Shown: in pieces, positions 3,974 through 37,546 of the stretch
Layout: every line of letters starts with the position of its first letter
Numbering within the stretch: position 1 is the first letter of the stretch
Virus record (IMG/VR): IMGVR_UViG_2565956620_000003
Direction: 5' to 3' (one strand)
From: a virus
Lineage: Duplodnaviria > Heunggongvirae > Uroviricota > Caudoviricetes
DNA length: 37,546 nt
The notes under the pieces: generated by a model
Told to the model about the DNA's origin: nothing
Seen by the model: the letters and a program-made list of their open reading frames with translations, nothing else
Database searches by the model: none
Made by a program: the position numbers and the translations under genes

Positions 3974-5179
3974 TTAAACCCCTTTGACAACGTCAGCGTT
4001 GACCTGTGGAACCCCGATTTCAGCGGCCAGATTCATGGCGGCTATTACCAGGTTACTGACGGCCAGCGGATACAGCAGGCTGACCATATTTTTACGGTGA
4101 CTTCCCGGATTGCTCAGGCGGGCACGTATGGCATCCACTGCACCGGCGTCCATAATGTCCGTCAGCTGTTTACCGGCCCGTTGCAGTTTGAACGTCAGAA
4201 ATTCTTCAAGGTTATTGTCCAGAGGCAGAAGTTCGACCACCTCACAGCGCTGAACGACTTCACGGACTTCCATATTGCGTTCAGACAGTTTTGTCGCCAG
4301 TTCCGGCTGGCCAATCAGCACGATGGACAGCAGTTTTTTGAAACCGGACTCCAGCTCAAAAAAGCGTTTGAGGTGTTTCAGTGTCGGAATGGGCAGACTG
4401 TGGGCCTCCTCAATCACCAGAACGTGGCTGAACCCCGCCTGGCTGCTGTCTTTCAGGACGCGATGCAACTGGCGAAAACGGGCGTCCTGACTGCGTCTGA
4501 TGCTTTCCAGTGGTGCGATGGTACTGATAATGGCTTCGGCAATAGCTGCTGCCTTCAGGGTTTTCCCTTTCACATCGTTGTCTTCCATAGCGATGATGTA
4601 TGGCTCGATAACAATTACCGGCGCATTCTCGCGGTTGATACGTTCAGTCAGGTCGCGGCGCAGCGTGGATTTACCCGCACCGGACTCACCGATGACGGCC
4701 ATAAACCCACCATGACGGGCTGTCTGGTACAGCGCCTCACGCACGTAGCGAATGTCCGGGGTGGTGAACACATCATCAGAACCCTGCATGGCTTCGTCGG
4801 CGAACGGGTCACGGAAAAGACCAAACGCTTTTTTGGTTGCTGGAAATAACACCTGTTTTTTGAGTAACATATTCTCTTCCTCACTGAGGCTCGTTTTATC
4901 TGTGGTACCCGCTGTACGGGGCGTGGCCGCGCCCTGTACAGCATCAAAACTCTTCGTTGTATCAATCCCCTGACTTTCCAGCCAGGACGCAAGACGCCGG
5001 CGCACTTCTCCGGGGCTGGTGCGGGGCCACGCGTTATGATTCACAATCTGGGCCAGCGTGGCCTCAGAAACATCGACAGCTCTCGCCACCACCGCCTGTG
5101 GAATACGGGCCTCTTTCAGTTGCTGCTTCAGTACCAGCATGTTTCCCTCCTCAGTTGCCGTTAACAATGCTGATAACAC
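3974..5179 (-). CDS. Transposition ATPase (MuB/TniB-like AAA+ protein)
   Basis: 401 aa; Walker A GESGAGKST; N-terminal HTH-like segment; lies immediately downstream of, and overlaps, the transposase gene as for Mu B. Confidence 0.85.
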   Translation of the reverse strand: MLSALLTATEEGNMLVLKQQLKEARIPQAVVARAVDVSEATLAQIVNHNAWPRTSPGEVRRRLASWLESQGIDTTKSFDAVQGAATPRTAGTTDKTSLSEEENMLLKKQVLFPATKKAFGLFRDPFADEAMQGSDDVFTTPDIRYVREALYQTARHGGFMAVIGESGAGKSTLRRDLTERINRENAPVIVIEPYIIAMEDNDVKGKTLKAAAIAEAIISTIAPLESIRRSQDARFRQLHRVLKDSSQAGFSHVLVIEEAHSLPIPTLKHLKRFFELESGFKKLLSIVLIGQPELATKLSERNMEVREVVQRCEVVELLPLDNNLEEFLTFKLQRAGKQLTDIMDAGAVDAIRARLSNPGSHRKNMVSLLYPLAVSNLVIAAMNLAAEIGVPQVNADVVKGV

Positions 5180-6920
5180 TGCTGCGGGCCGGTGTGGTCA
5201 GCGTGGCCATGACTTCATCCAGTGCGGCTTCCGGTACGCCGTCCGGGTACTGTGCCGTTAACTGGCGGTAATGTTCCGGCGTCCAGGTAAGGCCGTCGGC
5301 GCTGAACTTATCGCGCAGGGCTTTCGCGGCCTCCACATGAGTCATGGGACGTTGTTCAGTGCGCGGCCCGCGTACGTCAGAGGCCTGACCACGCTTCGGC
5401 ATATAGGCCGGAAGTGTGGTGTCGTCGATATGTTTATACGGGTCAAGCCGCCCGCCGAACGGCAGCGCCTTCGCCTTGCGTGCGGCGGCTGCATCTGCGG
5501 CGTTGTCTGTACCGGTAACCAGCGCTTCGGTTTCTTTTGCCGCCATCTGTGCCGGGGTTTCCGGCAGGGCTTTGTAACTTTCGCCAAATACCGCCGCGCC
5601 TTCAGCAAAGCCAAACTCGTTCTTTCTGACCTCTTCGACCAGGAAGAACGTCTCGTGGCCGTCCTCACCGGTCAGAACCACCTGTGCCACATCGCTGCGC
5701 CATGGGTTACGGGTAATCATCAGTTTTTCACCAACCAGTACGCCCGGTACCGTTGATACGTCAAATTCAGTGCCCCGGAACGAGACACGAAGTTTTGGCG
5801 TGACTTTGCGGAGTTCTGGTGCCGCCACAGCCAGTTCACGACATACCTCAACGGAAGGCGCTTTTTTCAGCTGCTCAGCAGTAATCTTCAGCCAGATATC
5901 CGTGCGGGTTTTACCGTGGCGGCTGTGAACAGCCGTGGCGTTAAAGTGGCTGCGCCATTTCGCGGCCAGCGCGTTGAGTTCTTCCAGACTGTGAACCGGC
6001 CGGAACTTCAGACCCGGCTCCAGCTTGCGTTCGATAATGTCACGCGCCTTTTCCACCTGTCCGGTGGCGCGGGCGTTATGCGGCTTGTGCGCTATCAGGT
6101 CGATGCCCAGTGAGCGGCACATGTTTTTCGTCATACCCGCGGTGTTTGCCGAGCCGGGGTCGAGATAGAGTATTTTCGGCACGCCGTGCAGCACGTCTGC
6201 GCCGCCACGCTCCTGCATGGCGTTGATAAGCACAGAACACAGGTTCTCACCTGATTCCGCGCCCGTCACATACTCAACGTAAATCCAGCCGCTGGCATGG
6301 TCGGTAATCTCGTAACTCCACACGCGGTCACTGGCGATACGGGCAAGGTTAGCGGGCTTGTTCTTGTAGAACTTCGCGCTGTCCATCACCTGCAGCCCTT
6401 TATGTCCATTGCTCAGGTAGTAAAGCGTGCAGAGTGAGGCGTCAATCTGCCAGACATGATTGGGATGCAGACTGGCCACTTCGGTATGTGGTGCAGGGGC
6501 ATCCAGTTGTTCCGGGTGCAGGCCATAGTTACGCAGAGCACGGCTGATGGCATCTTCAGACAACGGGAAAAACTCACTGGTGGTTTCATCTGTTCTGCCT
6601 GCGGTGATAAAGCCGTTAGCCCGCAGGGTTTCCACTGCATCTGCGATGGAATAGAGACGCTTACCGTTCTTGCGGGTGGCCTCACGCAGTGTGGCAGATA
6701 TCAGCGCGGCTTCGTCGCGGGTCAGGGCGCTGCGCCCGGCATCGGCGCGTTTTTTGCGTTTATCAGTCACAGATACCTCCTTCAGCCTGCGCAGCAGAGT
6801 GGCGCGGGACATGCCAAGTTCAGCACAGGCAGCGTCGTATATTGCACCGCGTTTACCATGCCCCGCGTCACGTGCCGCGCGGGCTGTTTCAACCAGTTTT
6901 TCAGTCAGTGCCGGGGTCAT
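5151..6920 (-). CDS. DDE transposase (rve/integrase-core type, BcepMu TnpA-like, not MuA-like)
   Basis: 589 aa; N-terminal HTH (GMSRATLLRRLKEV); integrase-core-like motifs (HPNHVWQIDASL, ILYLDPGSANT); sits between early regulators and the MuB-like ATPase. Confidence 0.85.
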   Translation of the reverse strand: MTPALTEKLVETARAARDAGHGKRGAIYDAACAELGMSRATLLRRLKEVSVTDKRKKRADAGRSALTRDEAALISATLREATRKNGKRLYSIADAVETLRANGFITAGRTDETTSEFFPLSEDAISRALRNYGLHPEQLDAPAPHTEVASLHPNHVWQIDASLCTLYYLSNGHKGLQVMDSAKFYKNKPANLARIASDRVWSYEITDHASGWIYVEYVTGAESGENLCSVLINAMQERGGADVLHGVPKILYLDPGSANTAGMTKNMCRSLGIDLIAHKPHNARATGQVEKARDIIERKLEPGLKFRPVHSLEELNALAAKWRSHFNATAVHSRHGKTRTDIWLKITAEQLKKAPSVEVCRELAVAAPELRKVTPKLRVSFRGTEFDVSTVPGVLVGEKLMITRNPWRSDVAQVVLTGEDGHETFFLVEEVRKNEFGFAEGAAVFGESYKALPETPAQMAAKETEALVTGTDNAADAAAARKAKALPFGGRLDPYKHIDDTTLPAYMPKRGQASDVRGPRTEQRPMTHVEAAKALRDKFSADGLTWTPEHYRQLTAQYPDGVPEAALDEVMATLTTPARSSVISIVNGN

Positions 6921-14614: not shown

Positions 14615-16206
14615 CAAAATCATCCGGAGTGATTTTAAACGCCGCTGGCGGCGGCCCCGAAGGGATGAGTCCCATGGACGGGAGGAATAACCTTGCTCCC
14701 GTTTTGCCTGATACCTCGGCGCTGGATGCCCCTCCCGTTCTGTTGCCTTACCAGCAGCGCTGGGTGGCAGACACCTCTCCGCTTAAGGTGATAGAAAAGA
14801 GCCGTCGTACCGGTATTACATGGGCTGAGGCATCCGATAACGTACTGACCGCCGCCTCTTCTGCGCCAGCAGGCGGGATGAATGTGTATTACATCGCTTA
14901 TAACCAGGACATGACCGTCGAATACATTCAGGCGTGTGCGATGTGGGCACGGGCATTCAACTATGCGGCCAGTGAAATTGAAGAAGGATTCTGGGAAGAG
15001 GACGACGACGACAAACACATCAAGACTTACACCATCAAATTTCCTGACTCCGGCTTTCGTATTGTTGCGCTCTCCAGCCGCCCGTCTAACCTGCGTGGCC
15101 GTCAGGGTATTATTGTTATCGACGAAGCGGCGTTCCATGAGCAACTGGACGAACTGCTGAAAGCGGCGCTGGCGATGCTTATCTGGGGGGGAAAGGTACG
15201 CGTTATCTCCACCCATGACGGTGACGACAATCCGTTCAATACGCTTATCGGGGATATCCGTGCCGGACGTCAGGGAGGCAGCATACATCGCATCACTTTC
15301 CGGGAAGCCGTATCTGAGGGGCTGTTCCGGCGCGTCTGTCTGCGCACCGGGAAGGAATGGTCGGAGGCATCCGAGCAGGCCTGGATGGCATCGGTGTACA
15401 AATTCTACGGTGCCGGCGCATCCGAAGAGCTTGACTGTATTCCGGCCAACGGTGGCGGTGCCTGGCTGTCCCGTGCCCTGATAGAGTCCCGCATGTCCGC
15501 TGATACGCCGGTATTGCGTCTGACCTGCAAGGAAGGTTATGAACTGCTGTCTGATGAGGTTCGCTTCCGCGAGACGCAGGACTGGCTTGATGAGTATCTG
15601 AAACCATTGCTGGAGGCACTCCCCACTGATGCCCGCTCTTTCCTGGGGCGCGACTTTGGCCGTAGCGGTGATTTGTCGGTGGACTATCCCCTGCTGCAGG
15701 AGAAGAACCTGGTACGACGCGTGCCATTCGTACTGGAGCTGCGTAACGTGCCGTTCAGACAGCAGGAGCAAATCACCTGGTATCTGATGGATGGCCTGCC
15801 CGGTCTGCTGGGTGCAGCGTTTGATGCCCGTGGTAATGGTGCCTATCTGGCTGAATACGCCATGCAGCGCTACGGCTCCGGCCGGGTTCAGCAGGTGATG
15901 CCAACCGAAGGCTGGTACCGGGAGCATATGCCTCCGGTCAAAGCTGCACTGGAAGACGGCAACCTGGTGGACTTACCAAAGGATGAAGACACACTGGATG
16001 ACCTGCGGGCCGTTCAGGTGGTGAACGGTGTCCCCCGCGTACCGGAGCAACGCTCAAAAGCAAAGGCTGACGGTGGTAAACGCCACGGGGATTCAGCCAT
16101 CGCACTGGCGCTGGCGTATTTCGCCAGCCGTGAAATTAACAAAGGGCCGGTGAAGGCAAGCTCACGCCGTCGTCGTCAGGCGGCCCGTATGCTGGAGGGA
16201 TTCTGA
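14611..16206 (+). CDS. Terminase large subunit (Mu gp28-like)
   Basis: 531 aa; ATPase and nuclease-type acidic motifs (GIIVIDEAAF, VISTHDGDDNPF); position upstream of the portal. Confidence 0.8.
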   Translation: MTKSSGVILNAAGGGPEGMSPMDGRNNLAPVLPDTSALDAPPVLLPYQQRWVADTSPLKVIEKSRRTGITWAEASDNVLTAASSAPAGGMNVYYIAYNQDMTVEYIQACAMWARAFNYAASEIEEGFWEEDDDDKHIKTYTIKFPDSGFRIVALSSRPSNLRGRQGIIVIDEAAFHEQLDELLKAALAMLIWGGKVRVISTHDGDDNPFNTLIGDIRAGRQGGSIHRITFREAVSEGLFRRVCLRTGKEWSEASEQAWMASVYKFYGAGASEELDCIPANGGGAWLSRALIESRMSADTPVLRLTCKEGYELLSDEVRFRETQDWLDEYLKPLLEALPTDARSFLGRDFGRSGDLSVDYPLLQEKNLVRRVPFVLELRNVPFRQQEQITWYLMDGLPGLLGAAFDARGNGAYLAEYAMQRYGSGRVQQVMPTEGWYREHMPPVKAALEDGNLVDLPKDEDTLDDLRAVQVVNGVPRVPEQRSKAKADGGKRHGDSAIALALAYFASREINKGPVKASSRRRRQAARMLEGF

Positions 16207-17702
16207 TGGCGAGGGGTATCTGGGTTTCACCCGATGAATTTGTTGCTTTTTCTGAGCCTCAGAAATCACTGACCGCGCAGATTGCCTCCCGCAGCCGCGC
16301 GATCGACTTTTACGGACTGGGCATGTATCTGCCCAATCCTGATCCCATTCTCAAGGCTCAGGGACGGGATATCCGTATCTACCGCGAACTGCGCACCGAC
16401 CCGCTGGTCGGGGGCTGTATCCGCAGACGTAAAGCAGCGCTCAAATCGCTGGAGCGTGGACTGGAGCGTGGTCACGCCTCTGCCCGGGTCTTCCGTTTCA
16501 TCCGCGACATGCTCGACGATCTGGATCTGTCCCGCATCATCGGTGAAATGAGCGATGCCGTGCTCTACGGGTATCAGCCCTGTGAAATCATGTGGGGCCG
16601 TTCGGTCAGGTCGTGGGCGGTGACGGATATTGTCGGCAAACCGCCTGAGTGGTTTCAGTTTGATACGGACAACTGCCTGCGCTTTCGGGCGCGTGATGCG
16701 GGTGTGGAGGGTGAGCTGCTGTCACCGTCAAAATTCGTGGTGCCGGCACAGGATGCCTCGTATGACAATCCTTACGGTTTCCCGGACCTGTCCATGTGCT
16801 TCTGGCCGGTCGCCTTCAAGAAAGGCGGGATGAAATTCTGGCTCCGCTTTGCCGAAAAGTTTGGCTCCCCGTGGGTGATCGGTAAGCACCCGAGGGGCGC
16901 AAATGATGCAGAGATTGAAAAACTGCTGGACTCCATGGAGCAGATGGTGGAGGACGCGGTGGCCGCCATCCCCGATGACAGCAGTATTGAGCTCAGGGCA
17001 GCGGATGGCAAGGCAGACAGCAGCGAGGTATTTCGCGAGCTGATCACACTGTCACGCAGTGAGATCTCCATTGCATTACTCGGTCAGAATCAGACCACGG
17101 AAGCGAACAGTAACAAGGCCTCTGCACAGGCCGGGCTGGAGGTAACGGCTGATATCCGCGATGCGGATGCGGACATCATTCAGGCGGCAGTGAATCAGGT
17201 CATCAGAACGGTGGTCACCCTGAACTTCGGCGATGTGCCGTGTCCGGTCTGGGCCATGTGGGAACAGGAGGCCATTGATGACACCCGTGCCACCCGCGAC
17301 GAAAAACTCACCCGGGCGGGTCTGCGTCTGACCCCGCAGTACTTCAAGCGTGAGTACCAACTGCAGGACGGCGATATTGACGAGACACCACCGTCGGAAC
17401 GCCAGAATAACATGCTGCCGCTGTCATTTGCCGAGGCGATTGATGCTGATATTCAGGCTCAGCAGCAGCTTGACGACGCGCTGGACATTCTGATGAACGG
17501 AGGCGCGTTAAATGGCACGCTGGAACCCGTCCTGGCACCTCTGTTCAGGCGGGTCGAAAACGGGGTTAACCCGTCTGAGCTGCTGGGCGAACTGGCGGAG
17601 CTCTACCCTCAGATGAACACGGACGATCTGCAGGAGCGGCTGGCCCGCATTCTCTTTGTGGCAAATATCCGGGGACGTCTGCATGAGCGTGACAACGGCT
17701 GA
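16206..17702 (+). CDS. Portal protein (Mu gp29-like)
   Basis: 498 aa; position between terminase and the head morphogenesis gene; start overlaps the terminase stop. Confidence 0.8.
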   Translation: MARGIWVSPDEFVAFSEPQKSLTAQIASRSRAIDFYGLGMYLPNPDPILKAQGRDIRIYRELRTDPLVGGCIRRRKAALKSLERGLERGHASARVFRFIRDMLDDLDLSRIIGEMSDAVLYGYQPCEIMWGRSVRSWAVTDIVGKPPEWFQFDTDNCLRFRARDAGVEGELLSPSKFVVPAQDASYDNPYGFPDLSMCFWPVAFKKGGMKFWLRFAEKFGSPWVIGKHPRGANDAEIEKLLDSMEQMVEDAVAAIPDDSSIELRAADGKADSSEVFRELITLSRSEISIALLGQNQTTEANSNKASAQAGLEVTADIRDADADIIQAAVNQVIRTVVTLNFGDVPCPVWAMWEQEAIDDTRATRDEKLTRAGLRLTPQYFKREYQLQDGDIDETPPSERQNNMLPLSFAEAIDADIQAQQQLDDALDILMNGGALNGTLEPVLAPLFRRVENGVNPSELLGELAELYPQMNTDDLQERLARILFVANIRGRLHERDNG

Positions 17703-32865: not shown

Positions 32866-33436
32866 GCCATTACAACTCCCGCCACCGCTTGAGGGTGATA
32901 TCAGTCTCAGGACGCTGGGAAGACTGGCAGGACGGCTGGATAACATCGACCTGAGCGTACTGATGGTCTTTCTCGTCGATATCGTCGACAGTTCCGCGCT
33001 GCCATGGCTGGGCGAGCAGTTCTCACTGTCTGGCGATGGCTGGGAGCTGGCGGAATCGGACGATGTTCGCCGCATGCTTATAAAAGCAGCCATCGAACTG
33101 CACCGGTATAAAGGGACGCCGTGGTCAATCCGGGAAGTTATCCGCCGTTTTGGCTTTGGTGAAGTGGATCTGATTGAAGGCACAGGTCGTCTCAGTTACG
33201 ACGGCAATCGCAGCTATAACGGACTGTTTGTTCATGGAGATGCAGCCGCCTGGGCAGTTTATCGCGTTATTCTGAAACAGCCCATTACTAACGATCAGGC
33301 CGCGATGCTGCGTCAGACGCTGGCTGCATTTGCACCGGCCCGCTGCCATCTGGCCAGCCTGGAGTATCAGTCTGTGGCCATTCGCTATAACAATACCGCC
33401 ATCCATGATGGCAGTTATAACCACGGGAGCAGTTGA
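32858..33436 (+). CDS. Tail protein I-like (baseplate, fibre attachment)
   Basis: 192 aa; P2 gpI position, directly upstream of the fibre gene. Confidence 0.7.
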   Translation: MTEPLQLPPPLEGDISLRTLGRLAGRLDNIDLSVLMVFLVDIVDSSALPWLGEQFSLSGDGWELAESDDVRRMLIKAAIELHRYKGTPWSIREVIRRFGFGEVDLIEGTGRLSYDGNRSYNGLFVHGDAAAWAVYRVILKQPITNDQAAMLRQTLAAFAPARCHLASLEYQSVAIRYNNTAIHDGSYNHGSS

Positions 33437-34770
33437 TTATGGGAAACCTGAATGAAACAGAAAAGTGGGAAGAAAATATCTATCAACTGGAGACATCAGA
33501 TCCGGTTCTGGGTGGTGCAGACGGGATATCAAATCGAGCCCCCCGGCAACTGGCAAACAGGACGAAATGGCTGAAGAAGAAAACGGAGGAAGCCGCACAG
33601 TCACTGGCTGAACACGTACGTTCCCGTAACCACCCGGACGCGACACTGACAGCTAAGGGGTTCACCCAACTGAGCAGTGCCACCAACAGCACCTCTGAAA
33701 CGCTGGCCGCCACACCAAAAGCGGTCAAGGCTGCATACGACCTGGCAGCCGGCAAGGCGCCTGCCAGCCACACTCACCCGTGGAGTCAGATAACGGGAGT
33801 GCCTGCGGCTTCACTGACGGCAAAAGGCACCGTACAACTGAGCAGCGCCACGGACAGTCAATCAGAAACTGAGGCTGCCACGCCGAAGGCGGTCAAGGCT
33901 GCATACGACCTTGCAGCCGGCAAGGCGCCCGTCAGCCACACTCACCCGTGGAGTCAGATAACGGGAGTGCCTGCTGCCTCGCTGACGGCAAAAGGCACCG
34001 TACAATTGAGCAGTGCCATCAACAGCACGTCTGAAATACTGGCCGCCACACCGAAAGCGGTCAAGGCTGCATACGATCTGGCAAACGGAAAACAACCGGC
34101 AGATGCCACGCTCACTGCTCTGGCAGGACTTGCCACTGCAGCAGATCGGTTGCCTTATTTTACCGGAGCAGACCGCGCAGAGCTGGCAACCCTTACAGCT
34201 ATTGGTCGCGCTATTATCGCTAAGGGCAGTATAAAAGATGTCCTCAATTACCTTGGTTTAGGAGAAGGCTCGGCGCTACCCGTTGGTGTGCCTGTTCCGT
34301 GGCCCACCGCCACACCGCCAGCAGGCTGGTTAAAGTGCGACGGGCGCGCCTTTACAAAAGAACAATATCCTGTTCTGGCCAGAGTCTACCCGACCCTCCG
34401 TCTTCCCGATTTACGCGGTGAGTTTATCCGTGGATGGGACGACGGGCGCAAAGTTGATACAGGACGTAAGTTGCTGTCCGCACAAGGGGCAACGCTGTTA
34501 AGAACAGCAATGCTGGATTATTATAACCAGGACACTACGGGAACCTCGGGGATAGTCGGCATGGGATTCAACAATGAAGATTCCATTACAGACCTTCGTG
34601 AGGGCAGCTTTAAAATGCCGGACGGGACAACATTCAGCGATCCTGTCGTGGCAATGTCAGACAATGGTATGCAGGCTACTATTCTGACCTCTATCAGAAG
34701 CGGGTATGCGAAGGGTATCACTGTCAGACCCCGTAGCATTGCACTTAATTACATTGTGAGGGCAGTTTAA
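33433..34770 (+). CDS. Tail fibre protein: constant N-terminal part plus the currently expressed variable C-terminal cassette 1
   Basis: 445 aa; internal 56-aa tandem repeats; its C-terminal about 170 aa begin with the sequence GEGSALPVGVPVPWPTATPPAGWL that is also found at the start of two minus-strand cassettes. Confidence 0.85.
   Translation: MIMGNLNETEKWEENIYQLETSDPVLGGADGISNRAPRQLANRTKWLKKKTEEAAQSLAEHVRSRNHPDATLTAKGFTQLSSATNSTSETLAATPKAVKAAYDLAAGKAPASHTHPWSQITGVPAASLTAKGTVQLSSATDSQSETEAATPKAVKAAYDLAAGKAPVSHTHPWSQITGVPAASLTAKGTVQLSSAINSTSEILAATPKAVKAAYDLANGKQPADATLTALAGLATAADRLPYFTGADRAELATLTAIGRAIIAKGSIKDVLNYLGLGEGSALPVGVPVPWPTATPPAGWLKCDGRAFTKEQYPVLARVYPTLRLPDLRGEFIRGWDDGRKVDTGRKLLSAQGATLLRTAMLDYYNQDTTGTSGIVGMGFNNEDSITDLREGSFKMPDGTTFSDPVVAMSDNGMQATILTSIRSGYAKGITVRPRSIALNYIVRAV
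33646..34100 (+). repeat. About 2.7 tandem copies of a 168-bp (56-aa) tail-fibre repeat
   Basis: Units starting CTGAC at 33646, 33814 and 33982; protein unit LTAKG..QLSSA..S.SE..AATPKAVKAAYDLA.GKAP.SHTHPWSQITGVPAAS. Confidence 0.75.
34246..34271 (+). other. Candidate recombination crossover site A (gix/hix-like), inside the fibre gene
   Basis: TTACCTTGGTTTAGGAGAAGG; its reverse complement aligns with sites B and C around an AAACC-AA core. Confidence 0.5.
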
Positions 34771-35384
34771 TGAGTAACACTGCAGTTCTGGATGAAAACG
34801 GTATCGCCACTGTAGCGGGCGATATCACTGTATATCACTATGACGAGGAAACCCGGGAATACACCTCATCCTCTGTGGAGTATCTCGCCCTTGGGGTGGG
34901 TACTCCGGCACATTCGTGCGCCGATGCACCGCCGGAAGCAATTTCGGGTTACGTGGTTTGCCGGACTGCCACGCTGAACGGGTGGGAGCATGTGCCTGAT
35001 CACCGCGGCGAGACGGTATACAGCACGGAGAACGGTAACCCCGTTCTGATTACCCAACCGGGTGATTACCCGGCGGACACCACCACAAAACAGCCAGCCA
35101 CGCCATGGGATACCTGGAACGGTGAGGCGTGGGTAACCGATACTGAACGGCAGCGAGCCGCAGAACTGGAGGTTGCCAGACAGCAACGCCAGCAACGGGT
35201 GAAACAGGCGATGGCGTCCGTCGATCTTATCAACCTCAAACTGCGTGCTGGTCGCAGTCTGAAACCAGAAGAAACGGCAAAACTGAACGCCGTGCTGGAT
35301 TATATCGACGAGCTGAACGCACTGGATATCAGCAAGGCACCTGAAATCAGCTGGCCGGAAGCGCCACTGGCGCTTGCCGGCTGA
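34770..35384 (+). CDS. Tail fibre assembly protein (Mu U / Tfa-like)
   Basis: 204 aa; start overlaps the fibre stop (TAATG); located inside the invertible segment. Confidence 0.7.
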   Translation: MSNTAVLDENGIATVAGDITVYHYDEETREYTSSSVEYLALGVGTPAHSCADAPPEAISGYVVCRTATLNGWEHVPDHRGETVYSTENGNPVLITQPGDYPADTTTKQPATPWDTWNGEAWVTDTERQRAAELEVARQQRQQRVKQAMASVDLINLKLRAGRSLKPEETAKLNAVLDYIDELNALDISKAPEISWPEAPLALAG

Positions 35385-35390
35385 ACGGTA

Positions 35391-35852
35391 TCACGCCGCC
35401 CTCACGATATAGTTAAATGCGATATTGCGGGGGCGAGCTGATACATAAGCCCACCAGTCATATCTTTGTGCACCTTTAGAGGATGCATCAAATATCCACT
35501 TTTTGCCATTTAAGACCCCCAGTTGATTAGAGGTTAAAGCGTCACCAAATCCGTATTGTGTAGAGCCGAGCGAACTGATATCTCCGGTATCATTATCATC
35601 AAAACCGGATACGATAGTCCCTTCCTGAAATGAAAGTAGCGCACGCCCGGTATCAACCTTGCGACCACCGTCCCATCCACGGATAAACTCACCGCGCAAA
35701 TCGGGAAGACGGAGGGTCGGGTAGACTCTGACCAGAACAGGATATTGTTCTTTGGTGAACGTAGCTCCGTTGCACTGTAACCAGCCTGCTGGCGGTGTGG
35801 CGGTGGGCCATGGAACCGGTACACCAACAGGCAATGCAGAGCCTTCCCCCAA
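35391..35852 (-). CDS. Silent alternative tail-fibre C-terminal cassette 2 (no start codon of its own)
   Basis: Begins at the crossover-like site with TTG (Leu in the fused reading frame) and LGEGSALPVGVPVPWPTATPPAGWLQCNG, about 90% identical at DNA level to the start of cassette 1; ends with the shared motif RPRNIAFNYIVRAA. Confidence 0.7.
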   Translation of the reverse strand: MGEGSALPVGVPVPWPTATPPAGWLQCNGATFTKEQYPVLVRVYPTLRLPDLRGEFIRGWDGGRKVDTGRALLSFQEGTIVSGFDDNDTGDISSLGSTQYGFGDALTSNQLGVLNGKKWIFDASSKGAQRYDWWAYVSARPRNIAFNYIVRAA

Positions 35853-35863
35853 ACCAACGTTTC
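35838..35863 (-). other. Candidate recombination crossover site B
   Basis: Plus-strand sequence CCTTCCCCCAAACCAACGTTTCTATG at the 5' end of cassette 2. Confidence 0.5.
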
Positions 35864-36291
35864 TATGCCGCCCTTACGATGTAATTAAACGCAATGTTAC
35901 GGGGACGAATGGTCACATAATTAACCCCATCGCCTCGCGAAGGACCTGCAAATGAAAAACGGGAGAATCCAGGTTGGTTGTCAACGATTTGGTCATAGTT
36001 ATTGATTGAATGACCAGACCCAATGTCAAAATTACCTGCGTAATGAGAAAAACTTGTACCATCCTGCCGTGAAAGCAGATCGCGCCCTGTATCCACTTTT
36101 CGCCCGTCGTCCCATCCACGGATAAACTCACCGCGTAAATCGGGAAGACGGAGGGTCGGGTAGACTCTGGCCAGAACAGGATATTGTTCTTTTGTAAAGG
36201 CGCGCCCGTCGCACTTTAACCAGCCTGCTGGCGGTGTGGCAGTGGGCCACGGAACAGGTACACCAACGGGCAGCGCCGAGCCTTCCCCCAA
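35863..36291 (-). CDS. Silent alternative tail-fibre C-terminal cassette 3 (no start codon of its own)
   Basis: Begins with TTG at the crossover-like site; first ~200 bp about 97% identical (inverted) to 34262-34460 of the fibre gene; ends with RPRNIAFNYIVRAA; an in-frame TGA lies just upstream of the site on the minus strand. Confidence 0.7.
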   Translation of the reverse strand: MGEGSALPVGVPVPWPTATPPAGWLKCDGRAFTKEQYPVLARVYPTLRLPDLRGEFIRGWDDGRKVDTGRDLLSRQDGTSFSHYAGNFDIGSGHSINNYDQIVDNQPGFSRFSFAGPSRGDGVNYVTIRPRNIAFNYIVRAA

Positions 36292-36308
36292 ACCAACGTT
36301 TATCTCTC
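36283..36308 (-). other. Candidate recombination crossover site C
   Basis: Plus-strand sequence CCTTCCCCCAAACCAACGTTTATCTC at the 5' end of cassette 3, about 55 bp upstream of the invertase gene. Confidence 0.5.
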
Positions 36309-36362
36309 AAATCCTCCCCACATTATCTCAGTACTTTAACCACTCAAAAGGGAGTATTTTTA

Positions 36363-36935
36363 ATGCTGATTGGCTACATACGTGTGTCAACAAATGACCA
36401 AAACACAGATTTGCAACGCAATGCATTAATGTGCGCAGGATGTGAACAGATTTTTGAGGACAAAATGAGCGGAACCAAGTCGGAACGACCAGGCCTGAAA
36501 CGCGCTTTAAAGTGCCTTAAAAGAGGGGATACATTGGTGGTCTGGAAGCTGGATCGGTTGGGTAGAAGAATGAAACACCTCATTGCTCTCACAGAAGAGC
36601 TACGCGCAAAAGGTGTCAATTTTCGCAGTCTGACGGATTCAATCGATACCAGCACTCCGATGGGAAGGTTCTTTTTTCATATGATGGGTGCACTGGCAGA
36701 AATGGAGCGTGAACTGATAGTTGAGCGCACGCTGGCTGGACTGGCTGCTGCGCGAGCACAAGGAAGAGTTGGAGGACGTCGCCCGAAACTGACGAAGGAG
36801 CAGCATGAGCAGATCGCAAGATTGCTCCAGAAAGGGTATGACAGAAAGCGGCTGGCAATTATCTATGATATTGGACTGTCAACGATCTACCGCTATCACC
36901 CTGTTGGGACTGTCATAACGCAACCTGAAATGTAA
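36363..36935 (+). CDS. Serine DNA invertase (Gin/Hin/Cin/Pin family)
   Basis: 190 aa from ATG 36363; N-terminus MLIGYIRVSTNDQNTDLQ with the catalytic serine in RVST; C-terminal HTH; ribosome-binding site AAGGGAG upstream. The track ORF start at 36234 is an unsupported upstream extension. Confidence 0.9.
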   Translation: MLIGYIRVSTNDQNTDLQRNALMCAGCEQIFEDKMSGTKSERPGLKRALKCLKRGDTLVVWKLDRLGRRMKHLIALTEELRAKGVNFRSLTDSIDTSTPMGRFFFHMMGALAEMERELIVERTLAGLAAARAQGRVGGRRPKLTKEQHEQIARLLQKGYDRKRLAIIYDIGLSTIYRYHPVGTVITQPEM

Positions 36936-36967
36936 TTCTTTTTCAAATAATGAAACGCCGCGTGGAT

Positions 36968-37013
36968 GCCATTTATCGCACAAGATAGAGTGCATTTATC
37001 GCGCGGCGCATCA
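36968..37013 (+). other. Prophage right end with two direct transposase-binding-like repeats
   Basis: CATTTATCGC at 36970-36979 and 36994-37003; terminal sequence GCATTTATCGCGCGGCGCATCA resembles the Mu right end as recalled and ends in CA at 37013. Confidence 0.5.
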
Positions 37014-37546
37014 CCACCGGGATTGGCATTCTTTATGTCAAAGAAGCCTTGTTGCAGGAGATGCCGCCGTGGGAAGGGGGCGGTTCTATGATCGCCACCG
37101 TCAGCCTGAGTGAAGGCACTACCTGGACCAAAGCACCATGGCGGTTTGAAGCCGGTACACCCAATACCGGGGGCATCATTGGTCTTGGCGCGGCGCTGGA
37201 GTATGTGTCGGCGCTGGGGCTTAATAACATAGCCGAGTATGAACAGAATCTGATGCACTACGCGCTATCACAGCTGGAATCTGTACCGGATCTCACTCTC
37301 TATGGCCCGCAGAACAGGCTTGGCGTTATTGCTTTTAATCTCGGTAAACACCACGCCTATGATGTTGGCAGTTTTCTCGATAACTACGGCATTGCTGTGC
37401 GTACCGGACATCACTGCGCAATGCCATTGATGGCCTATTACAACGTTCCTGCTATGTGTCGGGCGTCGCTGGCCATGTATAACACCCATGAAGAAGTGGA
37501 TCGTCTGGTGACCGGCCTGCAACGTATTCACCGTTTGCTGGGATAA
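37014..37546 (+). pseudogene. sufS: 3' fragment of host cysteine desulfurase gene sufS (about codons 230 to 406), cut off from its 5' part by the prophage
   Basis: Translation from 37016 reads [31 protein letters not shown] ... [50 protein letters not shown], matching the C-terminal part of E. coli SufS as I recall it; reading frame is lost upstream of 37014. Confidence 0.85.

Follow-up and report, generated by a model that had tools for sequence, protein, structure and literature searches.

Related tail-fibre inversion systems

A tail-fibre module with three inverted repeats and four variants has been described in a P2-like prophage of EPEC O127:H6 E2348/69 (NC_011601.1, 1891695-1893703; Goldberg et al. 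2014, Genome Med, PMC4272514), where PCR and paired-end deep sequencing revealed four variants with three C-termini that coexist in cultures grown from a single colony. That study termed the repeats IRs and borrowed the name 'shufflon' for the module; the crossover was not assigned to sites of the pix type, and the single tfa received no discussion (PMC4272514). PCR-confirmed switching has also been reported in a preprint for the present locus in ST131 (10.1101/2022.05.07.487787).

The locus considered here lies near the right end of the window, by which we mean the whole 37,546-nt (37.5-kb) stretch of phage DNA that was analysed. It comprises the constant 5' part of a tail-fibre gene (Sc), three alternative C-terminal ends (Sv1, Sv2 and Sv3), one tail-fibre assembly gene (tfa), three crossover sites (A, B and C) and a serine invertase gene. 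The EPEC module is homologous and has the same architecture. Its three sites share the inner half-site TTCCCCCAAACC-AA, and ~68 bp separate the last of them from the invertase gene; the one tfa, 59% identical, lies in a large segment of ~1.6 kb that is accompanied by a small cassette segment of ~440 bp. The invertase is 84% and the Sv3 end 86% identical. The two differ in their carrier, which is P2-like in EPEC and a BcepMu-like transposable prophage here, and in two of the three variable ends, which are merely 52-59% identical, so that the receptor specificities probably differ. The design is already known, its architecture having been demonstrated in EPEC in 2014, and the present locus is an ordinary new member.

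More distant relatives share parts of this plan. In the Pin/P segment system of e14 (E. coli K-12) the fibre gene is also split at the site, the invertase PinE is 76% identical to ours (~185 aa), the sites, with inner half-site TTCTCCCAAACC and an AA core, are nearly the same, and the gene-proximal site continues AACGTTTAT in both; in e14, however, there are two sites and two states, and each of the two ends has an assembly gene of its own (stfP-tfaP, stfE-tfaE), whereas the present locus has three sites, four states, three ends and a single tfa. The order of fibre gene, invertible segment and invertase is that of the Mu Gin/G segment and P1 Cin/C segment systems, and the 5' part of the invertase gene has 75% DNA identity with Mu gin over 260 nt. 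Mu nevertheless differs in having two states, a GA core dinucleotide and its own S/U gene pair for each orientation, and the collar-type fibre ends found here are unrelated to Mu Sv; the N-terminal repeats alone match Mu S. We rejected assignment to the two-state class of Mu G and P1 C, given three sites and three ends, one tfa in the window, and a smaller invertible segment (Y, 437 nt) that is Sv3.

The Min system of plasmid p15B likewise combines a Din-family serine invertase with more than two sites, overlapping segments, and one constant part that can be joined to several 3' ends. Min reportedly has six sites and hundreds of isomers, in a P1-like plasmid prophage, compared with three sites and four isomers here. 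The window does contain three sites, overlapping segments and one Sc that can be joined to three 3' ends, and the original prediction of a Min-like switch is supported; its account of the states has to be amended to four DNA states for three ends, with Sv3 represented twice. Arrays of several cassettes are common among relatives, and close relatives of the invertase occur with five to eight cassettes (L043, L045, L046). For p15B, PMC5903667 refers to Sandmeier et al. 1990 (PNAS 87:1109). The shufflon of IncI plasmids such as R64 is alike in using multiple inversion to give one surface adhesin, PilV, alternative C-termini, but membership of that family was rejected: Rci is a tyrosine recombinase acting with sfx sites, whereas the enzyme here is a serine invertase accompanied by pix-like sites.

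Organization of the fibre gene and its cassettes

The fibre open reading frame is uninterrupted on the plus strand from 33433 to 34770, and its likely true start is the ATG at 33439, which comes after the stop codon of the upstream gpI-like gene in agreement with the annotation of a relative. RefSeq annotation splits this intact gene into fragments. Sc (33439..34252, plus strand) is not part of the invertible DNA; tandem repeats of 168 nt, three in number, occupy 33644-34147 (tandem repeat family D1), and three Phage_fiber_2 repeats were identified. In the present assembly Sc is joined to Sv1 (34255..34770, plus strand). This end has a variable middle between a conserved collar block and a conserved C-terminal strand, and PDB structures of the T4 gp37 tip and of a short tail fibre match its collar region. 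Two silent alternative ends with collar domains follow on the minus strand, Sv2 (35391..35855) and Sv3 (35863..36294), the latter filling segment Y (35858-36294). The corresponding open reading frames, 35391-35852 and 35863-36291, are promoterless 3' cassettes with one Phage Tail Collar domain each; their TTG 'starts' are mechanical artefacts of ORF calling, and the cassettes extend to the crossover sites.

All three ends are laid out alike: ~75 aa of conserved collar come first, 60-85 aa of variable sequence follow, and a conserved 13-aa strand forms the C-terminus. The variable stretch is presumed to be the receptor-binding part that sets host range. Each end can be fused in frame to Sc, giving proteins of 445 (Sv1), 428 (Sv2) and 417 aa (Sv3), in keeping with the three alternative C-termini that had been proposed. 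The tfa gene (34770..35384, plus strand; Pfam Caudo_TAP, E = 5.6e-27) lies within the larger invertible segment; its start overlaps the stop of Sv1 (TAATG) with a GAGGG Shine-Dalgarno motif upstream, and no tfa paralogue was found elsewhere in the 37.5-kb window.

Repeats and crossover sites

The block that the original prediction saw at the beginning of the expressed fibre end and of both minus-strand frames is present as three 229-bp copies, 85-94% identical, each of which stops at a 26-bp site resembling pix and gix. The inverted-repeat arms 34250-34478 and 36071-36299 are complementary at 94% of their 229 nt, and the arms 34250-34478 and 35632-35860 at 85% of the same length; the two copies on the minus strand stand in direct orientation to each other, and the repeats at A and C have in common an identical run of 140 nt.

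At the ends of the blocks the sites take the form TTCYCCYAAACC-AA-SGT. Site A (34241..34266; pattern match 34250-34266) is on the minus strand, where it reads TTCTCCTAAACC AA GGTAATTGAGGA, with its core TT at 34253-34254, and bounds the invertible DNA on its fixed left side. Site B (35844..35869; pattern match 35844-35860), TTCCCCCAAACC AA CGTTTCTATGCC on the plus strand with core AA 35856-35857, is internal, and its orientation flips with the large inversion. Site C (36283..36308; pattern match 36283-36299), TTCCCCCAAACC AA CGTTTATCTCTC on the plus strand with core AA 36295-36296, is the fixed right boundary. With up to two mismatches allowed, the pattern matches three times in 37.5 kb, at A, B and C alone, against 0.03 matches expected, and three or more matches arose in none of 100 shuffles. 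Aligned with sites taken from the public MG1655 and Mu records, the inner half-sites and AA core agree with e14 pix and resemble Mu gix, so that the suspected likeness to known crossover sites is borne out. Site C is separated from the ATG of the invertase gene by 67 bp, a spacing (~66-68 bp) also present in Mu and at least 40 relatives.

The invertase and a candidate enhancer

The gene adjoining site C (36363..36935, plus strand) encodes a serine DNA invertase of 190 aa that belongs, as had been supposed, to the Gin/Pin/Cin/Hin (Din) family. It starts at ATG 36363, not at 36234, contains Resolvase (E = 8e-51) and HTH_7 (E = 1e-12) domains, and is 73% identical to Mu Gin over about the same ~185 aa as to PinE. 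Residues R7, the catalytic Ser9, R65 and R68 are invariant among the three proteins, and the Gin structures 4m6f and 3uj3 match the enzyme at E about 1e-93.

Residues conserved only in Fis/enhancer-dependent invertases have been listed as Q150, R153 and L154 together with the basic residues K46, R47 and K50 (PMC3798978). Our invertase retains all six, the first three being Fis contacts in its DNA-binding domain. Two 15-mers resembling the Fis consensus occur at nt 94-108 and 140-154 of the invertase gene, 46 nt apart and in alignment with counterparts in Mu gin, and delimit a putative, unstranded Fis-bound recombinational enhancer (36456..36516) in the 5' part of the gene, which is where the enhancer is situated in this family. 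Judged from these residues and motifs, inversion may depend on Fis and on this enhancer.

A four-state inversion model

By analogy with its family, the invertase would bind the 26-bp sites A, B and C, cleave each of them in the middle, at AA/TT, and invert whatever DNA separates two oppositely oriented sites. We denote as X the segment 34255-35855, which comprises the Sv1 end, tfa and the Sv2 end, and as Y the segment 35858-36294 with the Sv3 end; a prime marks inversion. Site A on the left and site C on the right stay fixed in place and direction while B, inside, is turned by the large inversion. The reachable arrangements form a cycle: A x B turns (X,Y) into (X',Y), from which A x C leads to (Y',X); B x C then yields (Y',X'), and a further A x C restores (X,Y). 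An A x B or B x C exchange spans 1.6 kb and an A x C exchange 2.0 kb. The end fused to Sc is Sv1 in (X,Y), Sv2 in (X',Y), and Sv3 in both (Y',X) and (Y',X'). We infer that the B x C exchange takes place in the present element as well.

Arrangements in sequenced genomes

The arrangements were sought in 5,426 RefSeq genomes, all at the 'complete genome' level, among which the carriers of the module are E. coli, mostly ST131. All four arrangements reachable by inversion are present, with every segment 100% identical. The (X,Y) arrangement of the window is matched over 3601 nt in one piece at 100% by at least 30 genomes, EC958 (L003) among them. The A x B product (X',Y) occurs in L002 and at least 25 further genomes, and at least 25 genomes carry its Sc-Sv2 junction in a 1061-nt match of 100%. 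The A x C product (Y',X') occurs in L001 and at least 25 others, so the pairing of A with either B or C that had been forecast is evident from its products. The remaining arrangement, (Y',X), is matched over 1491 nt in one piece by at least 12 genomes and is also found in L014, and the Sc-Sv3 fusion is present at 100% identity in both L001 and L014. Exact 122-nt junctions were counted in 201 records for X and 185 for X' at the upstream flank (pre), and in 150 for X and 107 for X' at the downstream flank (post), numbers that are no clean census of states since they include sibling two-site modules sharing the terminal 75 nt of the repeat. The one junction that inversion cannot reach, Sc joined to forward Y, was found in none of the 5,426 genomes.

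The recombinant junctions in L001 and L002 sit exactly at the predicted dinucleotide. Cassette-specific single-nucleotide differences, the first of them 7 nt into the site, remain linked to their own cassette in spite of the 140-nt identical run at A and C; because these differences are never swapped, the exchange must fall within TTGGTTT, the 7 nt at the predicted crossover.

On the strength of this comparison among public genomes, the locus is very probably a working multiple-inversion host-range switch of the Gin/Pin/Min type. The earlier description of the phage as 'locked in state 1' finds no support, given that an assembly can display only one orientation and that the invertase and sites are identical to those of genomes in all four states.

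Alternative explanations

It might be supposed, in line with the 'locked' reading, that the parts are whole but no flipping occurs in the source strain, for example with a silent invertase, so that the single state displayed by the window is the true one. A simple scan did return no sigma-70-like promoter upstream of the invertase gene, but it returned none anywhere in the region and is therefore uninformative about invertase expression. The interval 33400-37000 is 100% identical to ST131 genomes in all four arrangements, among these genomes are groups of isolates with similar names that were submitted together, and in EPEC the homologous module is seen to flip under ordinary culture (PMC4272514); we consider a non-flipping locus very unlikely. 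The alternative arrangements in public genomes could in principle be assembly errors caused by the repeats, as 229-nt inverted repeats are able to mislead short-read assemblers and several draft and viral contigs end in or beside the array (L010-L012, L017, L043). Yet each type of junction is exact in 107-201 complete-genome records and the unreachable arrangement is in none, an assembler would neither obey the orientation rule nor put all breakpoints in the same 7 nt, and PCR has confirmed switching at both the ST131 (10.1101/2022.05.07.487787) and the EPEC (PMC4272514) loci, all of which leaves misassembly with a negligible chance of being right.

RecA-dependent homologous recombination between the inverted repeats, with an irrelevant or inactive invertase, would have ample substrate in 229-nt repeats that are 85-94% identical and include a 140-nt identical run, and the orientation of the repeats by itself predicts the same four reachable arrangements. 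It is the position of the exchange that makes this reading extremely improbable: in every recombinant examined over its whole length (L001, L002, L014 and the one-piece 100% matches across the Sc-Sv2 junction and to (Y',X)), the identity of X and Y is 100% right to the site, chimeric repeats were absent among them, and the exchange always falls within the 7 nt holding the crossover dinucleotide, which is too short for RecA, at sites that match pix and gix and beside an intact enzyme. Site-specific inversion by the resident invertase is the reading that we favour.

Orientation of tfa

In half of the states, (X',Y) and (Y',X'), the single tfa runs antisense to the fibre gene, and it may be either that Sv2 fibres do without tfa or that these states yield defective fibres. 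The arrangements (Y',X) and (Y',X') have the same Sv3 end and differ in the orientation of tfa relative to the late fibre transcript; likewise tfa is sense with Sv1 and antisense with Sv2. It is conceivable, though in our estimation improbable, that (Y',X) and (Y',X') are not redundant. Should Tfa remain on the fibre tip, which is what the Mu record says of the Mu chaperone, or be needed for folding, the switch would also set whether Tfa is present, and the outcome would be four virion phenotypes instead of three, or a deliberate fraction that is fibre-less or of short range. Relatives with as many as eight cassettes (L043, L045) likewise have one tfa, which would make such an effect general in the family.

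Implications

The scientific gain is small, the mechanism being a textbook one and the exact architecture having been shown in 2014. For comparative genomics of ST131, spurious "structural variants", broken contigs and mis-called pseudogenes are to be expected at this locus, and close clinical isolates would differ there owing to the switch alone. The three collar-type ends may serve as natural, interchangeable receptor-binding modules for phage or tailocin engineering, and where several prophages share a cell, a resident invertase could act on similar modules of the others. With Sc fused in frame to Sv1, Sv2 or Sv3, a lysogenic population would release virions with three different fibre tips, and a prophage common in the pandemic ST131 lineage very probably keeps an active three-way host-range switch.

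Organization of the locus and its crossover sites

The locus comprises an intact plus-strand tail-fibre gene (ORF 33433-34770, likely start ATG 33439), a tail-fibre assembly gene, tfa (34770-35384, plus strand, Caudo_TAP domain), two promoterless minus-strand cassettes (35391-35855 and 35863-36294) and a plus-strand recombinase gene (36363-36935) whose 190 aa product has Resolvase catalytic and HTH_7 domains. We denote the constant 5' part of the fibre gene Sc, its present 3' end Sv1, and the alternative ends carried by the two cassettes Sv2 and Sv3, respectively. A 229-nt block at 34250-34478 has inverted copies at 36071-36299 (94%) and 35632-35860 (85%), and each block terminates at the motif TTCYCCYAAACC-AA-SGT, which has exactly three matches in the 37.5-kb window (at most 2 mismatches) against 0.03 expected; none of 100 shuffled sequences gave three. 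The repeat blocks, cassettes, three sites and adjoining invertase described in the original prediction are thus confirmed. Site A lies on the minus strand (core TT 34253-34254, TTCTCCTAAACC AA GGTAATTGAGGA), with B (core AA 35856-35857, TTCCCCCAAACC AA CGTTTCTATGCC) and C (core AA 36295-36296, TTCCCCCAAACC AA CGTTTATCTCTC) both on the plus strand. An additional 35-nt inverted repeat (34729-34763 versus 35870-35904, 86% complementary) was ruled out as a further recombination site, as it lacks the site motif; it marks the C-terminal strand (RPRNIAFNYIVRA) conserved across all three cassettes and reflects protein conservation.

Comparison sites were read from public records. The e14 pix sites are TTCTCCCAAACC AA GGTTTTCGAGAG and TTCTCCCAAACC AA CGTTTATGAAAA, and a Mu gix site is TTCCTGTAAACC GA GGTTTTGGATAA; the expected resemblance to known crossover sites was borne out most closely for pix, and by their sequence A, B and C are essentially pix sites. 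The start codon of the invertase is 67 bp past site C, a spacing shared with Mu and more than 40 relatives. Assignment of the recombinase to the Gin family also holds: it shares 73% identity with Mu Gin and 76% with e14 PinE, Ser9 and the catalytic arginines are invariant, and solved structures of Gin are matched at E about 1e-93. Certain invertase residues are reported to be conserved solely in Fis/enhancer-dependent enzymes (PMC3798978), and these residues, Q150, R153 and L154 as well as the basic K46, R47 and K50, are present here. Two Fis-consensus-like 15-mers, candidate enhancer sites, occur at aligned positions matching those in gin, and we infer only that this invertase may be Fis-dependent. 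A promoter and terminator scan of 33300-37100 found nothing resembling a promoter and was uninformative for both tfa and the invertase.

Predicted inversions and fibre products

B and C have the same orientation and A the opposite. Pairing of A with B would invert segment X (34255-35855, comprising the Sv1 end, tfa and the Sv2 end), and pairing of A with C would invert X together with segment Y (35858-36294, the Sv3 end); the larger inversion would also flip B, making B x C pairing possible. Y never flips alone because its flanking sites are always in direct orientation, and an eight-state model that allowed it to do so is wrong. Inversion instead passes cyclically through four arrangements, namely (X,Y), (X',Y), (Y',X) and (Y',X'), where a prime denotes the inverted segment. 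The in-frame fusions are 445 aa with Sv1, 428 aa with Sv2 and 417 aa with Sv3, the last arising in two arrangements. The original prediction of at least three receptor-binding C-termini therefore stands with respect to the three ends, though not the number of states, since there are four DNA arrangements. Each end consists of a 75-aa collar block shared by all three, a stretch of 60-85 aa in which they differ, and a shared 13-aa C-terminal strand. The collar region matches the T4 gp37 tip collar and a short tail fibre in the PDB, which is consistent with a receptor-binding tip. The constant part of the fibre contains three tandem 168-nt (56-aa) Phage_fiber_2 repeats (33644-34147), with 65-83% identity to the reference copy. 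The fibre is longer in relatives, for example 611 aa in strain AR_0086 compared with 445 aa in the window, and the copy number of this repeat therefore probably varies among them.

Natural arrangements in public genomes

Predicted recombinant junctions were built in silico and searched against 5,426 complete E. coli genomes. EC958, JJ1887 and many other ST131 genomes carry a prophage that is 100% identical to window 33400-37000, and both predicted pairings of A, with B and with C, have products present at 100% identity. At least 25 genomes contain the A x B product at 100% as a single piece of 1061 nt. The A x C product occurs in E41-1 and 24 others among the genomes listed, and at least 12 genomes match (Y',X) at 100% along 1491 nt. 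Three loci retrieved for comparison carry every segment at 100% identity to the window, with segment order and orientation the sole differences: pre-X-Y-post in EC958, pre-X'-Y-post in AR_0055 and pre-Y'-X'-post in E41-1, where pre and post are the flanks of the invertible DNA. The suggestion that the phage is locked in its first state is accordingly not upheld. Sc joined to forward Y, which is unreachable by inversion and served as a negative control, was found in none of the 5,426 genomes. Similarly named isolates within single submissions differ in state (4/0, 4/1-1 and 4/4; the R and S series), and switching must therefore be fast relative to point mutation.

Exact 122-nt junctions were present in 201 (pre|X), 185 (pre|X'), 150 (X|post) and 107 (X'|post) records, counts that take in sibling two-site modules and are no clean census of states. 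Counts from long queries (at least 80% coverage) were unreliable for states, because separate same-strand pieces were joined and the tandem repeats of Sc and the short Y let wrong states pass; they were replaced by one-piece 100% rows and the exact junctions. A Y'|X junction query was also discarded, being the reverse complement of X'|Y and so unable to tell (Y',X) from (X',Y).

The rearrangements might in principle have arisen by RecA-dependent homologous recombination between the repeats, which share identical runs of 140 nt (A/C) and up to 33 nt (A/B). Such exchange would fall within those runs, whereas the observed exchange lies elsewhere: in every recombinant checked full-length, the SNPs specific to a cassette, from 7 nt inside the site onward, all stay with that cassette. 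Exchange is therefore confined to TTGGTTT, a 7-nt interval in which the predicted core dinucleotide lies. We regard a RecA origin as highly improbable, and to judge from these SNPs the recombination is site-specific, not homologous.

Public annotation of the locus varies with switch state. In the RefSeq (PGAP) records of E41-1, AR_0055 and EC958, over the stretch equivalent to window 33433-36294, the intact fibre gene is given as pseudogene fragments ("incomplete; partial in the middle of a contig"), and each silent cassette is called on its own, as a "phage tail protein" gene or a pseudogene. Several draft-genome and viral contigs (L010, L011, L012, L017 and L043) stop in the repeat block or within about 100-400 nt of the invertase gene, as would be expected if mixed orientations in the sequenced populations had broken the assemblies.

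The carrier prophage

Window 1-37013 is a complete BcepMu-type transposable prophage of about 37.0 kb, with an rve-type transposase (5151-6920), a Mu-type portal (16206-17702) and a P2-like tail. From its right end at 37013, the 3' part of sufS fills 37014-37546, and the host SufS gene is therefore disrupted by the prophage. A search of the 5,426 complete genomes gave no match to this prophage|sufS junction; in ST131 the phage lies beside aroA instead.

Relatives and known systems

The older, classical multi-site precedent is the Min system of p15B. Min is cited in PMC5903667. The present switch design has been published before: Goldberg et al. 2014 (PMC4272514) described "three IRs" at a locus within a P2-like prophage in EPEC E2348/69. 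That EPEC locus is homologous to ours, having the same half-sites and spacing, an invertase 84% and an Sv3 end 86% identical, and likewise a single tfa within the large segment. A preprint on ST131 chronic-wound isolates (10.1101/2022.05.07.487787) describes PCR-confirmed, reversible inversions of tail-fibre genes in prophages named "Entero_P88" and "Burkho_phiE255". The GenBank "Entero_P88" record (PV468777.1, "Escherichia phage Entero_P88_NC_026014(23)") carries the host genes pflB, focA, ycaO, serC and aroA and ends inside the invertible region of the window prophage, with the invertase, Sv3, Sv2 and the start of tfa, and the findings of the preprint therefore concern this locus at least in part. 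Titled a "complete phage genome", the record is a prophage-finder region with wrong boundaries. Our locus is thus an additional, naturally well-sampled member of an experimentally demonstrated kind of switch.

A scan of genome_contigs with the invertase returned only 5 loci, mostly at contig ends, and viral_contigs were used instead. Of the viral contigs encoding a close relative of the invertase, 46 had enough upstream DNA; there were two sites in 28 of these, three in 7, four, five and six in one each, and eight in 2. In the larger arrays the only tfa sits in one segment of about 1.6 kb, with cassettes of about 450-520 bp on either side. Contigs L043 (112-5337), L045 (2893-7573), L046 and L034 have close invertase relatives (84-86% identical) beside five to eight collar-type cassettes and a single tfa.

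A second, related prophage carries a two-site module, as seen in AR_0086 (L004, NZ_CP032201.1 2969000-2979000) and in loci L016 and L018. Its Sv1-tfa part is 98.5% identical, its second cassette is different, Y is missing, and the invertase has the identical protein accession. We rejected the idea that these modules are plain deletions of Y, as the second cassette is unlike Sv2 and only positions 1-1181 of X match. With two modules in one cell, either invertase could flip both in trans.

A single invertible tfa gene

Mu, P1 and e14 have a separate assembly gene for each fibre end, unlike the family described here. The window holds one tfa, inside X, with a start that overlaps the Sv1 stop and its own Shine-Dalgarno motif; its direction agrees with that of the fibre gene in (X,Y) and (Y',X), whereas in (X',Y) and (Y',X') it is antisense. 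It may be that Sv2 fibres fold without Tfa, that Tfa comes from elsewhere, or that some states give defective fibres. The single invertible tfa is the only part of this locus that could surprise.
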